Positions 1-38,907 of a stretch of 64,000 nucleotides of DNA are shown in pieces. This DNA is from Planctomycetota bacterium. GTDB taxonomy: Bacteria > Planctomycetota > UBA8108 > SXIK01. How positions within the stretch are numbered: the first letter of the stretch is position 1; each line of letters starts with the position of its first letter. The stretch covers positions 6,223,857 through 6,287,856 of the forward strand of contig CBDCXR010000004.1 of NCBI GenBank assembly GCA_965223845.1, given 5' to 3'. Under the pieces are notes generated by a model. The model made no database searches. It saw only the letters and a program-made list of their open reading frames with translations, and was not told the DNA's origin. The position numbers were made by a program, and so were the translations under genes.

Positions 1-384
1 GTCGATGATCCTCGCGAGATCCGTCGGCGGGGGCGCGCCGCGGGACGAAATGAGCTCACCCACCTTCTTCAGCCGCGCTTTCACTTCGTCGTGGAGAGCT
101 TCCGACGCCCAGCCATCGCGGGAGGGGTCATCGCGCTCGTCCCATCCCGGGACATCGTCCGACTCCGGGAGCGCGATCAGCTCGCGAACGAGCTCGACGC
201 TGCCTTCGGCGTTTTCGACCGGAGCGATCGACGGGGGCGGCGCGTCCGAGACCTTCTCTACCCCGCGGTCGCAGCCGCCGACGAGCGCAGCGCCGGCGAT
301 GAGGAGTCCGACCGTGCGCGCGACGCCGCCCCGACTCCTCAGAGGAAGTTCGAACGTATCGCCGGCTCGTCGTCTATCGCGCAT
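1..384 (-). CDS. Hypothetical lipoprotein, 3' end truncated by the window edge. The ORF track lacks it because it runs off the window
   Basis: Manual translation of the minus strand from the ATG at 384 gives MRDRRRAGDTFELPLRSRGGVARTVGLLIAGAALVGGCDRG..., a signal peptide with an LVGGC lipobox. The frame stays open to position 1. The overlapping plus-strand ORFs 5..967 and 91..750 are Arg/Ser-rich and look spurious. Confidence 0.45.
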   Translation of the reverse strand, partial: MRDRRRAGDTFELPLRSRGGVARTVGLLIAGAALVGGCDRGVEKVSDAPPPSIAPVENAEGSVELVRELIALPESDDVPGWDERDDPSRDGWASEALHDEVKARLKKVGELISSRGAPPPTDLARIID

Positions 385-568
385 GTCCCACCCGAACCGA
401 TTCTCGACCGTAGTCCCGAATCGAGCACGCCTCCGAAGGGGCTTCGCCCTCCTTCGATCTCACACCCTCGCTCTCTCCACTTCAATTCCGTTCTTCATTG
501 TCTCGCGTCGTGTTCGCGTCGCACACTTTCGGGTGAATGTCGACTCCCGCCTTCGCGAACGGTCGACG

Positions 569-610
569 AAAAAAAGGGCGGCTCCCGATTCCTCGGAAGC
601 CGCCCTTTTG
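569..610. terminator. Rho-independent terminator, probably bidirectional
   Basis: The 8-bp stem GGGCGGCT/AGCCGCCC has a 14-nt loop and is flanked by A7 on one side and T4 on the other. Read on the minus strand it is stem-loop then T7, 17 nt after the stop of the 629..3766 gene. Confidence 0.7.
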
Positions 611-628
611 CCGCTGCTTCGGATCAGC

Positions 629-3600
629 TCAGCACTTGTCGTAGAGATCGCAACCGAGCGAATCCGCGGGGCTCGGATCCGGGCCGCAGTCGGTTCCCTC
701 CGGTCCGTGGCCGCCGATCGGCGGGGGGCCGTCTCCGAAGAGGCGATTGAGGCCGAAAATCGGATCGGCGATGTTGTACGCCGCGTCGCCGTTCACGTCC
801 GCGGTCTCGGTACACGGCGGTGCACTGCCGTCGCCGAACAGGTCGTTCAGCATGAAGATCATGTCGGCGATGTTGACGGCGCCGTCGTTGTTGGCGTCGC
901 CGCGACGGAACTCTTGGCCGCCGCCGTCACCCGTCACGGTGTCCGCGCCGGCCTCGAAGTTCCCTAGGACTTCGCTCCAGCTGAGCGCGCGGTCGTACAG
1001 ACGAAACTCGTTGATCGATCCGTCGAGCATGGGATCGTCCCACTGCGAGCGCCCGAGCCAGTTGTTGAGCTCGAGCATGTCCGCGATCGAAAAGTGCGTA
1101 TCATTCTGGTCGACCCGCGAACCGTCGACGAAGAGCGCAACTCGACCTTCGTCGCCGTTCCAGACGACGACGATGTGCTGCTCGACGCCGTTCGGCATCG
1201 TCGCCGCGTTGAGTTGCCGCTCGACGCCCGTCGGGCCGTCACGATAGCCGAAACGAAGCGAGTTTCCGCCGCTTCTCGGCGTGAGGAAGAGGTTGTACGT
1301 CGTCGCACCGCCATCGGAGAAGTCTTCGCCGCCGACGGAATTGCCGAGATCGAAGAGGCGCTGCCAAGCGGGAGAGAACGCATTCCCGTTCCAGGTTGCC
1401 CACAGCTCGAACGTGACGTTGTTCCCGAGCGCCGAGATCATCTCGTTCGGAAGATCGACGTAGGCGCCGGGCGGATCCGCGGGCGGTGACTGACCGTTGT
1501 CGTTCGAGCTCTGAGCGCCGGGGTTGTTGGTGAACACGGCCTGACCGTCGAACGCGACCTCGCCGTAGCCTATCCCGTCCGCGCCGCCGTTCGCATCGGA
1601 CGCGTCGGCCGTGAACGAGTATCGGTGCGCCGGACCGCTCGAGAGATCGGCGGGCATCACCGCATTCACCGTCCAGTTGACTTCCGCGGTTCCCTCCGAG
1701 TTGGTCGCCCTGACGCGAACCTCGAACGAAGCCGGTCGGGGGTCGGGAATCGTGTAGTTCACGAGACCGCCCGGCGTGACCGTCGCGCCGTCCGGAGACA
1801 GAGCTTCGACCGTCGGAACGGGGACTCCCGAGATCGAAAGTTGCCGAGCATAGACCGTTTCGGTCGGTCCGATCTCGTCCTCTGCCGGAACGCCGGTGAT
1901 CTCGGGCGCGACGGGATCGAAGAAGTCACTGAACTCCGTATTGAAGTTGTGCTCGATCTCCGCGTCCCGGAGCGTGTCCGAGTGGATGCGGAGCCGCGCG
2001 ATGGAGAGCGAGCCCTTGAGCGGAATGTTGACCGCGACGCCGTCCGGCTCGAGCTGGCCCGCCACCGTGATGCGCGTGCAGCAATGGGTGTCGATGGCGC
2101 CGACGCCGAGCTCCTCCTCGTTCTGGAGAACGCCGTCGGCGTACACCCGTGTCGTCGTTCCGTCGTAGGTATAAACGAGGTAATGCCAGATTCCCGCCTC
2201 GGGTGCGCCCGGTGTGAAGTCATTGTCGACCCAGCCGATGTCAGCGGTCGCGCCGCCCCAGTGTCCGATGGCGCCGAAGTTGCCGTGGTCCCCGTAGTTG
2301 AAGCTCATGTTCGAACCGTCGGGACCGCCGCGCCGTCCCCAAGCGACGATGGTCTCCTCGCTCGCGATCTCTGGGTTGTACACCCAGGCCTCGATCGATC
2401 GTTTCGGATCGGGGCCGATGATGCTTTCGGGCGCATTCTCGATGCTCTGGTAGAAGTCGTCGGTGAATCCGTCCGGCGGATTGAAGGTCACGGCGGCGAC
2501 ACCCTCGACCGTCTCGAGGAAGGGCTCACCGACTCGCTCGAAGTCGCCGGCCTCGCTGTCTTCGGCGAGATTGGTCCAGAAATCTTCGCCCGCCGATTCG
2601 TCGTCGGCGTCGAGGTGGACGACGAGCTGACCGGCGACCGCGAGCTGGCCCACCGGGGGAAGTCCCTCGCGCGAGACCGTCCACGATGCTTCCGTTTCGC
2701 CGGCTGAGTTCGATGCCTTGATCGTGATCTCGAAGGAACCCGGCTGCGGATCGGGAAGTGGGACCGAGAGCGAGCCGCGTCGCGCGAATTTGCCCGACTC
2801 CGTCAGAGACGTATTCGCGGGTGCCGCGACGATCTCGACCGACGGCAGCGGGAAGCCATCGACCGCGAACGTCGCCGTGTACTCCGCCTCCCCGGCGAGG
2901 TAGGTCTCGTCGTCCGGCACGCCCACAAAGACGGGCGCGACCGGCGTGATCGGGAAGTCTTCGCGCTCGAGCTCGTAGTTGTTGGCGATTTGCTCATCGG
3001 TAAGGACGCCGTCGTGGATGCGGAGGCGTCCGATCGAGAGCGAGCCCTTGAGCGGCAGATTGATCGCGATGCCGTCCGGCTCGAGCTGTCCGGCGACGGT
3101 GATGCGCGTCTCGCCGTGAGTATTGATCACACCCGGTCCCAGGACCTCGTTGTTCGCGTCGCACTGCTCTTCGCTGATGCAACCATCGGCGTAGACGCGC
3201 GTCACCTCACCGTCGTAGGCGTAGACGAGGTGGTGCCACTGCCCCGCGACCGGCGCACCCGCGGTGAACGCGTTGTCGACCCAGCCGATGTCCGGGCCGT
3301 TGCCGCCCCAGTGGCCGATCGCGCCGAAGTTTCCGTGGAACCCGTAGTTGAAGCTCATGTTCGAGCCGTCGGGACCGCCGCGTCGTCCCCAGGAGACGAT
3401 CGTCTCTTCCGACGCGATCTCCGGGTTGAACACCCAAGCTTCGATCGTTCGCGTGGCGTCCACTCCAATGAGACCTTCCGACGCGAACTCGACGCTCTGA
3501 TAGAAGTCGTCGGTGAAGTCGAAGTTGAAGGTGACGGCCGTAGCGCCGTTGATGTCCTCGACAAACGGCTCGCCGACTTTCTCGAAGTCGCCGACGGGGC

Positions 3601-35541: not shown

Positions 35542-36264
35542 TCAGCGACCGTGACGAAGACGCTCGCCGAGGGCGAGCGGAAGTCCGGCTTTCTGGAACT
35601 TGTGTACCGCCGCGTCGATGTCGTACGGGAAGCGGCAGAGACGAACGTGCGCCTGATCCGTGTCGAACAGTGCACAGGATGCCCGCGGGTCGCGATCGCG
35701 CGGTTGCCCCACGCTCCCGACGTTCACGATCGTCTGATCCGCTGCGCGTAGCGAGATCTCCGTCTCCAGCGTGTACGAGATCACCTCGGTCTGAACGAAG
35801 GTCACCGGCACGTGAGAGTGGCCGATGAAGCAGACGGCGTTCTGCATATACGCCATCGAAAGCGACGCGTCGTACGTCGTCTGCACGTAATCGAAAAGCT
35901 CGGGCGAGCAGAGAGTTCCGTGCACGACGTCGAGCCCGTCCAGGTGGTGGACGAGCGGGAGGCTTCCCAGGTAGTTCACGTCGTCGCTCGAGAGCTTGTC
36001 GCGTGTCCAGATCGTCGCCTCGCGGGCCAGCGCGTTGAAGTTCGCGATGCTGAGCTTATCTGCGACGGCGAGGTCGTGATTCCCGGCGACCACGTAGCTC
36101 GAGATCTTGCGCACGCGGTTCAGGCATTCCGCCGGCTCGGGGCCGTAGCCAACGATGTCACCGAGGCAGATGAACTCGTCGACCCCTTCTCGTTCGAGGC
36201 CGGCGACAACGGCCTCGAGCGCATCGAGGTTGCCGTGAACGTCTGAAATGATGCCGTAGCGCAC
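35542..36264 (-). CDS. Calcineurin-like metallophosphoesterase
   Basis: ISDVHGNLDALEAVV, GDIVGYGPEP and GNHD motifs. The start is assigned to the GTG (VRYGIISDVHGN) preceded by GAGAGG. The longer N-terminal extension in the ORF track runs into the parS array and is rejected. Confidence 0.7.
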   Translation of the reverse strand: MRYGIISDVHGNLDALEAVVAGLEREGVDEFICLGDIVGYGPEPAECLNRVRKISSYVVAGNHDLAVADKLSIANFNALAREATIWTRDKLSSDDVNYLGSLPLVHHLDGLDVVHGTLCSPELFDYVQTTYDASLSMAYMQNAVCFIGHSHVPVTFVQTEVISYTLETEISLRAADQTIVNVGSVGQPRDRDPRASCALFDTDQAHVRLCRFPYDIDAAVHKFQKAGLPLALGERLRHGR

Positions 36265-36462
36265 CGTGCTGATCCTCTCGCGTCCGACTTCAGCTGGAGT
36301 CCTTTGGTCAGGAAAGTATAGGACACGACTTCGATCCGCGCCGGTTTCCGTGCCGAATCGATGGATTGATGCGGAGGCGAGCACGTAAGGCACTATCCTA
36401 AAGCGAGATAGGTGTCTTCCGCGAACGTCCCCCGCGTGCGCGCCGCCGAACTGAGTTCGCCG

Positions 36463-37047
36463 GCGCGATGCGATGTTCCACGTGGAACATTTTGGGCCGC
36501 AGTCGGGCGTTTTCAGCTTCGTTCGAATCGCGTCAGTCAAACTCATGCGTTTCTCCGGCAGAGGTTGACGCGCGAGCGGGGCCCCCAAATCCGTTCGACA
36601 GGATGTTCCACGTGGAACATCGGCCGATCCACGGCCGTCGGATGCGTTTCCAGGTTGGCTCAGTCGCGGGTGAGCGCCAAGCGCGCTCGTCCCCGGGTGG
36701 ATTCAGATGTTCCACGTGGAACATTCCGTCTCCTGGGATCTTCGGGGCTCCGCGATCGGCGCCGCGGATGTTCCACGTGGAACATTCCTTCATCCGGGAC
36801 CTCCCGGTGTCCCGCGATCAGCGCGATGCGATGTTCCACGTGGAACATTCCTTCATCCGGGACCTCCCGGCGTCCCGCGATCAGCGCGAGGCGATGTTCC
36901 ACGTGGAACATTCCTTCATCCGGGACCTCCCGGCGTCCCGCGATCAGCGCGCCGCGGATGTTCCACGTGGAACATCTGAGGCGGGATCCACGATGTTCCA
37001 CGTGGAACATCGTCCGCTGAGTAAGTTCGATGTTCCACGTGGAACAT
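36463..37047. promoter_or_regulatory. parS: Array of nine identical 18-bp perfect palindromes ATGTTCCACGTGGAACAT, a parS-like centromere cluster upstream of parAB
   Basis: Copies at 36463, 36603, 36707, 36768, 36831, 36894, 36958, 36993 and 37030, each 18 bp and all identical. The core TGTTCCACGTGGAACA differs from the ParB-binding parS consensus TGTTNCACGTGAAACA only by a symmetric A-to-G change. Copies 4-6 are embedded in a ~63-bp higher-order repeat, with a degenerate fourth copy around site 3. Confidence 0.8.
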
Positions 37048-37139
37048 CCAGGCCCGTGACCCGCCTTCCCGTTGAAACGCGATTCGAAGGCCCCTATGAT
37101 CGCCGTCTGGATCCCCGGAAGTGGAGGAATGCGAGGATC

Positions 37140-37916
37140 TTGGTAGAGTGCATCACGATCGCAAGTCAGAAGGGCGGAGTGGGGAAGACCACCACCGCGG
37201 TGAATCTCGCCGCTAGCCTGGCGCTTGCTGAGCGACGGGTGCTCCTCGTGGATCTCGACCCGCAAGGAAACGCGGCGAGCGGGATAGGCCTCGCTGAGGG
37301 TGAAGTCCCGGATCGTGGGGGATTCGTGTCGGCGGCGCTTGCAGAGGAGGATCTCTCGCCGTTCGCCGTGGGGACCCGGTACGAAAACCTCTCGGGTTTG
37401 TGTTCCCCCGCTGAGTTGTCTCAACTCCCGCTGATCCACAGCTTGCAGCAGGAGGACGGGCTCGATCGGTTCCGAAAAAGCCTACGGGCGGTCGCCGAGC
37501 AGTTCGATTTCCTCCTCTTCGACTGCCCGCCGTCCCTCGCGGGGCTTCCGAGCGTGGCTCTGTCCTGCAGCGACAAGGTGCTGATCCCGGTGCAGTGCGA
37601 GTACTACGCGATGGAAGGGCTGAGTCAGATTTTGCCAATAATACAGAAATTGCAGAAAACTACAAATCGGGATCTGCGCGTTGGGGGCCTACTCCTCACG
37701 ATGTTTTGCGAGGAGCTCGAGCTCGCGCGCGAAGTCGCGGGCGAAGTACGCGGGTATTTTGCTGCCGAGGTGTTCGAGAGTGTGATCCCGCGGGACGTCG
37801 TTCTCGCCGAGGCGTCGAGTCACGGCGTCCCGGCGTTTCACTACTCCCCGCTTGCACGGGGGACTTGGGCGTACTTGGAGTTGGCGCGAGAGGTACTCGA
37901 TCATGGCCGGGCGTAA
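37140..37916 (+). CDS. parA: Chromosome partitioning ATPase ParA/Soj
   Basis: ITIASQKGGVGKTTTAVNLAASLA (deviant Walker A), LLVDLDPQGN, DFLLFDCPPS. The start is tentatively the TTG 11 nt after GGAGGA; no in-frame ATG lies near the conserved N-terminus. The stop overlaps the parB start. Confidence 0.85.
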   Translation: MVECITIASQKGGVGKTTTAVNLAASLALAERRVLLVDLDPQGNAASGIGLAEGEVPDRGGFVSAALAEEDLSPFAVGTRYENLSGLCSPAELSQLPLIHSLQQEDGLDRFRKSLRAVAEQFDFLLFDCPPSLAGLPSVALSCSDKVLIPVQCEYYAMEGLSQILPIIQKLQKTTNRDLRVGGLLLTMFCEELELAREVAGEVRGYFAAEVFESVIPRDVVLAEASSHGVPAFHYSPLARGTWAYLELAREVLDHGRA

Positions 37917-38907
37917 ATTGGGCCGGGGGCTCGACATGCTGATCCGAAAGCGCGAGGCGGATTCGGATCTCGAAGGCGGGACTCGGCTTCCGCCCGTCGC
38001 GGACGCGGAGCAGGAACCTTCGGCGCCGACGACGGAGCCCGTCGCCGAGCCGGAGCCGGAACCCGAGCCTGAGGCCCAAGCCGAGGACGATCCCGTCCTG
38101 CGCGTGGTTGCGGTCGATCCAGCGAGCGTCGATGCGAACCCCGAGCAGCCACGTAAAGTATTTGAGCGAGGTGAGTTAGATAACCTCAAGGCGTCGATCG
38201 GCCGCGACGGCTTGCTGCAGCCGATCCTCGTTCGCCGGCTCGGGACGGGCCGCCTGCAACTCGTGGCGGGCGAGCGCCGTCTGCGGGCGGCGCAAGAGCT
38301 CGAGCTCGAGGAGATCCCCGCGATCGTCGCTGAGGTCACCGACGATCGGCTGCTCGAAGTCGCGCTCATCGAAAACATTCAGCGCCAGGACCTGAACCCG
38401 ATCGAGACGGCGGCTGCCTACCGCAATCTCATGCGGGCGAAGCGGTGGACGCAGGAGGAGCTCGCGCGCGCGCTCGGAGTCGGTCGACCGAGCGTCTCGA
38501 ACACGCTTCGCCTTCTCGATCTCCCCGCGGAGATGCAAAAGGCGCTCGCCGCCGGGCACATCAACATGGGGCACGCGAAAGTGCTCCTCGCCGTTGAGGA
38601 CGACGAGGATCGCCGCGAGCTCTTCGAGCGTATCGCCGAGGAACGTCTCTCGGTCCGTCAGCTCGAGGACGCCCGCGAGGAGGCGATGGCCGCCCGTTCG
38701 GACGGGGAGTCCGGCGGGCGACCGGAACGGCCCCGCCGGCGTCGCGATCCAAAGATCGCCGCCCTCGAGGAGGAGCTCCGCGCGTCGCTCGGGACGAAAG
38801 TCGTAATTCAGGAAGGCGCGCGAAAGGGGCGGGGACGCGTCACCATCGAATTCTATTCCGCTGACGATTTTGAGCGGATCCGAACGCGGTTGCTCGCGCG
38901 GAGTTGA
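37903..38907 (+). CDS. parB: Chromosome partitioning protein ParB/Spo0J
   Basis: MAGRKLGRGLDMLI..., the ParB box LQPILVRR...QLVAGERRLRAAQ, and the HTH EELARALGVGRPSVSNTLRLL. Confidence 0.9.
   Translation: MAGRKLGRGLDMLIRKREADSDLEGGTRLPPVADAEQEPSAPTTEPVAEPEPEPEPEAQAEDDPVLRVVAVDPASVDANPEQPRKVFERGELDNLKASIGRDGLLQPILVRRLGTGRLQLVAGERRLRAAQELELEEIPAIVAEVTDDRLLEVALIENIQRQDLNPIETAAAYRNLMRAKRWTQEELARALGVGRPSVSNTLRLLDLPAEMQKALAAGHINMGHAKVLLAVEDDEDRRELFERIAEERLSVRQLEDAREEAMAARSDGESGGRPERPRRRRDPKIAALEEELRASLGTKVVIQEGARKGRGRVTIEFYSADDFERIRTRLLARS

Follow-up and report, generated by a model that had tools for sequence, protein, structure and literature searches.

A 63-bp higher-order repeat in a Planctomycetota parS array very probably arose by local tandem duplication. 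The repeat lies within a cluster of nine parS sites in the window (i.e. the whole 64,000-nt stretch of DNA that was analyzed, part of a 7.87-Mb contig), and each of its units comprises one parS site together with the spacer that follows it. Slippage or unequal crossing-over is the mechanism that we infer. A palindrome shared by the repeated spacers looks incidental from sequence comparisons: it appears to have been carried along with the duplication and not to be a second protein-binding site. These results partly support an earlier, sequence-only reading of the locus, in which the palindrome was proposed to bind a second factor or, alternatively, the repeat to reflect recent unequal-crossover amplification.

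Exact copies of TGTTCCACGTGGAACA were found nine times at 36474-37046, 5′ of parA-parB (0.09 expected from shuffles). This 16-mer matches the conserved chromosomal parS consensus tGTTNCACGTGNAACa, a 16-bp palindrome, and the 19-mer GATGTTCCACGTGGAACAT is invariant at all nine sites. When up to three mismatches were allowed, no further copies of TGTTCCACGTGGAACA appeared across the 64-kb window, and the array itself holds no degenerate sites. The sites, to which no strand was assigned, are parS 1 (36474..36489, a perfect 16-mer); parS 2 (36604..36619, within a 20-bp perfect palindrome); the exact copies parS 3-6, starting at 36708, 36769, 36832, and 36895; parS 7 (36959..36974), followed by a short unique spacer; parS 8 (36994..37009), which contains an ATG; and parS 9 (37031..37046). 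The array thus packs nine sites into 573 bp. We also noted that some non-adjacent sites share their left flanks: GCGCGATGCG is common to parS 1 and parS 5 (36461-36473 vs. 36821-36831) and GCGCCGCGG to parS 4 and parS 7 (36758-36768 vs. 36948-36958). This sharing, which extends over 9-10 nt, suggests that, besides simple tandem duplication, the sites have undergone conversion or recombination with each other.

The genes downstream form a cognate parA-parB operon with canonical ParA and ParB motifs. parA (37140..37916, + strand) encodes, from a TTG start, a 258-aa ATPase of the ParA type (Pfam AAA_31/CbiA), and parB (37903..38907, + strand; reading frame open from 37852) encodes a protein with the canonical Pfam domains ParB_N, HTH_ParB, and ParB_C. 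The ParB sequence contains the N-terminal ParA-interaction motif LGRGLDMLI as well as the CTP-binding motif GERRLRA and ENIQRQDL; these motifs mark it as an ordinary ParB of the CTP-dependent clamp type. A CTP-independent ParB needing the array was also considered and was ruled out by the intact GERRLRA and ENIQRQDL. Short tandem repeats of 6 bp and 18 bp inside parB (38033-38085) encode an EPEPEPEP/AEPE low-complexity linker in the N-terminal region, ahead of the ParB_N domain. Taken with the nine sites, this gene content makes the region most likely the chromosomal centromere of a Planctomycetota-type ParABS system, at whose sites ParB would bind and load. Gene annotation covered 30.7-42.6 kb of the window, and no GC-skew switch was found in the full 64 kb.

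On the other side of the array lies a divergent metallophosphoesterase gene (35542..36264, − strand), whose start was placed by alignment to a 240-aa homologue. Since this start is near 36264, the array falls within an 875-bp divergent intergenic region. A single promoter-like site was predicted, 25 bp 3′ of the last parS site: a sigma-70-type parAB promoter at 37072..37100 (+ strand; TTGAAA-17-TATGAT, 10 of 12 matches), whose −35 hexamer is thus 25 bp from parS 9. Hexamer pairs of the kind TTGAAA/TTGCAA ... TAAGAT/TATCAT were likewise predicted after the last parS site in three related loci (L001, L007, and L009). Apart from parS, the only intergenic stretch shared with L007 was the 12-mer AGTATAGGACAC (36315-36326; 2153-2164 in L007; E = 0.23), which, read on the minus strand as GTGTCCTATACT, may be the −10 element of the divergent metallophosphoesterase gene.

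Tandem Repeats Finder detected a period of 63 bp with 4.3 copies and 90% matches at 36706-36975, as the sequence-only reading had described; its spacer sequence and its numbering of the copies were correct as well. Three units, all on the + strand, are 95-97% identical to each other in the one assembly: unit 4 (36767..36829; parS 4 and a 45-nt spacer, 63 bp), unit 5 (36830..36892; parS 5 and a 45-nt spacer, 63 bp), and unit 6 (36893..36956; parS 6 and a 46-nt spacer, 64 bp). Ahead of them lies unit 3 (36706..36766, + strand; parS 3 and a 43-nt spacer, 61 bp), which shares 63% ungapped identity with the near-identical units. With gaps, its spacer agreed with the consensus spacer at 32 of 43 positions. 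Because this score exceeded those of all 5000 shuffles and of all random genomic 43-mers tested, we regard unit 3 as a copy of the 63-bp unit that arose earlier and has since diverged, which bears out the claim of a degenerate spacer after the third site. The tandem duplication had been put at about four copies; three of these are near-identical, and the fourth is the older copy. In all, only three to four of the nine parS sites belong to the repeat.

Other kinds of repetitive or structured element were considered for the array. A dispersed element such as a REP or MITE was ruled out, as neither spacer half was found elsewhere in the 64 kb beyond chance-level matches with three mismatches. Searches against Rfam returned only miRNA-hairpin matches far below threshold, which were caused by the palindromes, and no terminator-like site was present within the array, so that an RNA element was rejected as well.

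To place the repeat in a wider context, we compared the locus with related ones. Among the matches listed from 5.8 billion proteins, only the source itself matched the window's ParA at 100% identity, and the next match was at 64%. An exact-spacer scan of metagenome contigs gave no match. The relatives, which are Planctomycetota where named and whose ParA is at most 64% identical to that of the window, share the gene order TatA, metallophosphoesterase, array, parA, parB, and OEP, and carry 9-26 parS sites with the same perfect 16-mer in the same slot. Their arrays differ in internal structure. These arrays comprise (i) L001, with 26 parS sites in 1.1 kb, and a 177-bp higher-order repeat composed of several spacer classes; (ii) L007, with 15 sites and one recurring spacer class; (iii) L009, with at least seven sites in 66/67-bp units nested in a 133-bp repeat that an assembly gap interrupts; (iv) L133, with nine sites and three copies of a 55-bp unit; (v) L137, with nine sites and no higher-order repeat noted; and (vi) L151, with 15 sites, no repeat, and every spacer unique. 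Two relatives with identical ParA (P0033) were identical at all 15 site positions.

Spacers resembled each other within arrays and not between them. A partner at least 80% identical was present in the same array for 26 of 66 spacers, and in another lineage for none of the 66. The maximum between-lineage identity was 0.69, with a background of ~0.6, and blastn between arrays with parS masked gave nothing below E = 0.2. Spacer sequences, flanking bases, and repeat periods of the relatives were all lineage-specific. Relatives with ParA at most 64% identical to the window's therefore keep the parS palindromes and leave the spacers unconserved, which is the pattern that the sequence-only reading had itself associated with an incidental spacer palindrome. 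The within-array repeats across the clade are consistent with concerted, lineage-specific amplification, in agreement with its suggestion of unequal crossover.

Several of the related contigs end inside the parS array (L130, L131, L132/L134-L136, and L148-L150, with the contigs of the P0022 set, identical in ParA, among those breaking off within the array), and L009 contains a run of N at 3431-3529. Because contigs end or gap there, the sizes of parS arrays in metagenome-assembled genomes are probably underestimated. Directly 5′ of its array, L009 carries genes for a Mu-type transposase and an IstB-like ATPase and a DnaG zinc-ribbon ORF (123-3103), where TatA and metallophosphoesterase genes usually stand; the L009 parABS locus may lie on or beside a mobile element. 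In a further population (P0070; ParA 55% identical to the window's), the slot (L138-L142, ~1400-2830) holds only two parS-like sites, together with a 192-bp tandem repeat without parS (e.g. L139, 1775-2440). The copy number of this repeat differed between samples (2.5 vs. 3.5), with site-to-site distances of 1207, 1400, and 1555 bp, and it may represent a repeat-containing ORF. The TGTTCCACGTGGAACA variant was widespread in a metagenome scan (L010-L129), with 85 loci having two sites and 16 having three. Arrays of seven or more sites were rare in this set and belonged mostly to parA-linked Planctomycetota loci, with a few others (L091/L112, L092, L074, and L108). A literature search on parS in Planctomycetes returned no description of such arrays in the library searched, which is not proof of novelty.

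Short direct repeats separated by tens of base pairs lend themselves ideally to slipped-strand misalignment and unequal sister recombination. In the history that we favor, a unit of parS plus spacer would have been copied head to tail, giving the 63-bp higher-order repeat, and the likely mechanism would be replication slippage or unequal sister-strand recombination between neighboring perfect parS repeats of 19-20 bp. One earlier round would have produced unit 3 and one or more later rounds units 4-6. Each duplication would have carried along whatever the spacer held, including its 6+2+6 inverted repeat. Selection would then keep only the parS palindromes, with the spacers free to drift; the decay of unit 3 and the uniqueness of every spacer in L151 are what is expected if selection holds parS while spacers decay. 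Functionally, each extra unit could give the CTP-dependent ParB clamp an additional place to load. Sites separated by 45 bp could all be occupied, which would raise the local density of ParB beside parAB, and ParB might, as a further step, dampen the adjacent promoter. Placing parS sites side by side in an array is a recognized way of concentrating centromere-binding protein locally (PMC12260392).

Selection could alternatively have acted on the period itself, with sites six helical turns apart aligning ParB dimers along the same side of the helix, so that a defined higher-order partition complex could form, and the spacer serving as a ruler only. The spacings within the repeat (61, 63, 63, and 64 bp) fit this possibility, and the arithmetic behind the periodicity of about six turns proposed earlier is right (63/10.5 = 6.0). 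Related arrays also contain similar lengths: the 66/67-bp units of L009, recurrent spacings of 64-65 bp in L001, and one of 63 bp in L148. Across 66 spacings from seven arrays, however, a Rayleigh test detected no preferred phase for periods of 10, 10.5, or 11 bp (p of about 0.6, range 0.46-0.83). Most spacings measured 35-55 bp, the last sites of the window's own array are 35 and 37 bp apart, and the periods found in relatives are 55 bp (5.2 turns), 66/67 bp (6.3-6.4 turns), and 177 bp. Moreover, tandem duplication yields equal spacing as an automatic by-product. We consider a selected period very unlikely. Broader still is the proposal of a selected composite module, in which the palindrome and/or the six-turn phasing would recruit a young, lineage-specific protein or organize ParB clamps beside the parAB promoter, in a clade with satellite-like chromosomal centromeres of 9-26 perfect parS sites and higher-order repeats, whose rapid turnover would have functional consequences; this we hold to be very unlikely.

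The palindrome needs closer consideration. CCGGGACCTCCCGG occurs exactly three times in the window, starting at 36794, 36857, and 36920, i.e. once per near-identical spacer, so the claim of an inverted repeat in each of these spacers holds; the motif GCGatcaGCG is a direct and not an inverted repeat. The three copies of the inverted repeat (36794..36807, 36857..36870, and 36920..36933, no strand assigned) read CCGGGA-CC-TCCCGG, with two 6-bp arms around 2 bp. A second dimeric protein (e.g. a ParB paralogue, a nucleoid protein, or a regulator of parAB) might bind here, making the 63-bp unit a composite module. The palindrome is perfect and identical in the three units, and within the 64 kb it is confined to the array. 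None of the substitutions among units 4-6 falls inside it: all 4-5 variable columns lie outside, which has a chance probability of ~0.16-0.23 given that the palindrome covers 14 of 45 spacer columns and is not significant. As the units are duplicates, however, the three copies count as a single event. Inverted repeats of this kind are also common by chance. Of random 47-mers drawn from the window, 13.9% contained a perfect one with arms of at least 6 bp when loops of up to 6 were allowed, and 7.5% did so with loops of up to 2; shuffles of the spacer itself held such a perfect inverted repeat in 9.5% of cases.

The older unit provides a further comparison. In unit 3, the palindrome is degraded to CTGGGATCT-TCGG, with arms CTGGGA and T-TCGG and no compensatory change; the best inverted repeat in this spacer has 4-bp arms, and the adjoining parS 3 is perfect. 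CCGGGANNTCCCGG was found nowhere else in the window and in none of 133 other loci, essentially all parS-bearing, of which 120 were collected by scanning metagenomes for parS sites in pairs. Spacers across the clade arrays, unrelated between lineages, showed no enrichment of inverted repeats either (8.8% vs. 6% in controls for arms of at least 6 bp; 17.5% vs. 18.5% for arms of at least 5 bp). No regulator gene was evident beside the locus. A second protein-binding site in the spacer is accordingly very unlikely, and the earlier proposal of a second factor was not sustained, although a very young, lineage-specific factor would escape comparison with relatives whose ParA is at most 64% identical. 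A resemblance to the Noc-binding site was set aside. The core of this site is TCCCGGGA and Noc is a Firmicutes protein; the spacer reads TCCGGGA..TCCCGG, which is not the Noc-binding palindrome.

Least credible, and by our estimate extremely improbable, is that the repeat is an assembly artefact or a coding sequence, i.e. a 21-codon unit in a 90-aa ORF (36707-36979) or in an extended ParA (ORF 36468-37916): the arrays do break or gap the assemblies of relatives, reading frames are open across the array (36993-37916 and 36468-37916), and a public annotation of ParA (307 aa, P0001) starts at the ATG inside parS 8, but the units differ at several positions, which argues against a collapsed or duplicated read artefact, and the array sits on a 7.87-Mb contig, whereas a coding role is contradicted by the lengths of 250-300 aa of the great majority of 120 listed ParA homologues, by the best ParA matches, which align over 97-100% of the 258-aa query starting at 37140, by the predicted promoter between array and parA, and by the spacings of 61, 64, 35, and 37 bp, which shift the reading frame. 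Open frames are expected in any case, given a parS sequence free of stop codons in every frame and a genomic G+C content of 65%. In L007, a 271-aa gene was called over the whole array (2128-2943, − strand); this call and the 307-aa ParA start look like annotation artefacts. As a practical warning, arrays of this kind fragment assemblies and give rise to wrongly called ORFs and start codons.

Among known systems, the best match for local tandem duplication of parS and spacer is sopC of the F plasmid, in which a 43-bp sequence containing a 16-bp inverted repeat is directly repeated 12 times; relatives have anywhere from 3 to 17 such repeats, and a single copy is enough for function (PMC3177203). 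Like the SopB-bound sopC, the repeat described here is built of head-to-tail direct units, each with one 16-bp inverted-repeat site for the binding protein and a co-duplicated spacer without known separate role. The number of sites likewise varies widely among relatives (9-26), with unrelated spacers. In contrast, sopC lies 3′ of sopAB on a plasmid, belongs to type Ia, and has a site sequence of its own, whereas the present array has canonical chromosomal parS sites and a ParB of the chromosomal type, lies 5′ of parAB on the 7.87-Mb contig, and has a period of 63 instead of 43 bp. By analogy, the array would work like sopC, its closest counterpart in mechanism, without belonging to the Sop family.

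The closest chromosomal case is that of Myxococcus xanthus, for which passages of two reports describe 22-24 parS sites in ~3 kb 5′ of parAB (PMC3899335, PMC3778016) and in vitro binding of the consensus TGTTCCACGTGGAACG by ParB (PMC3899335). The parS of the window differs from this consensus, as given there, by one base. Both loci have many sites clustered 5′ of parAB on a large, G+C-rich chromosome, but in M. xanthus ~4 kb separate the cluster from parA, and its sites are on average ~140 bp apart. The present array is denser, abuts the promoter, and holds a 63-bp tandem repeat; the passages on M. xanthus mention no higher-order repeat.

A precedent for a centromere with a site for a second protein is parS of P1, a composite centromere in which ParB box A and box B motifs flank an IHF site. 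Two classes of repeat are present in P1 parS (PMC3177203). The second site of P1 is functionally defined and conserved; unlike it, the candidate second motif here is not statistically distinct from background, is not retained in the diverged unit, and is not conserved in related arrays.

A second binding site in the spacer, if true, would be a new layer of chromosomal centromere organization. As the evidence speaks against such a site, the repeat is chiefly a record of parS array growth. The finding is thus ordinary in kind, with the dense arrays and higher-order repeats across the clade as a modestly interesting side result. This Planctomycetota lineage keeps 9-26 perfect parS sites immediately 5′ of parAB, in arrays that would evolve by local amplification and spacer drift, in a manner resembling plasmid sopC or, by analogy, satellite centromeres. 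These arrays may offer natural material for studying ParB-CTP clamp loading as a function of parS number and spacing.
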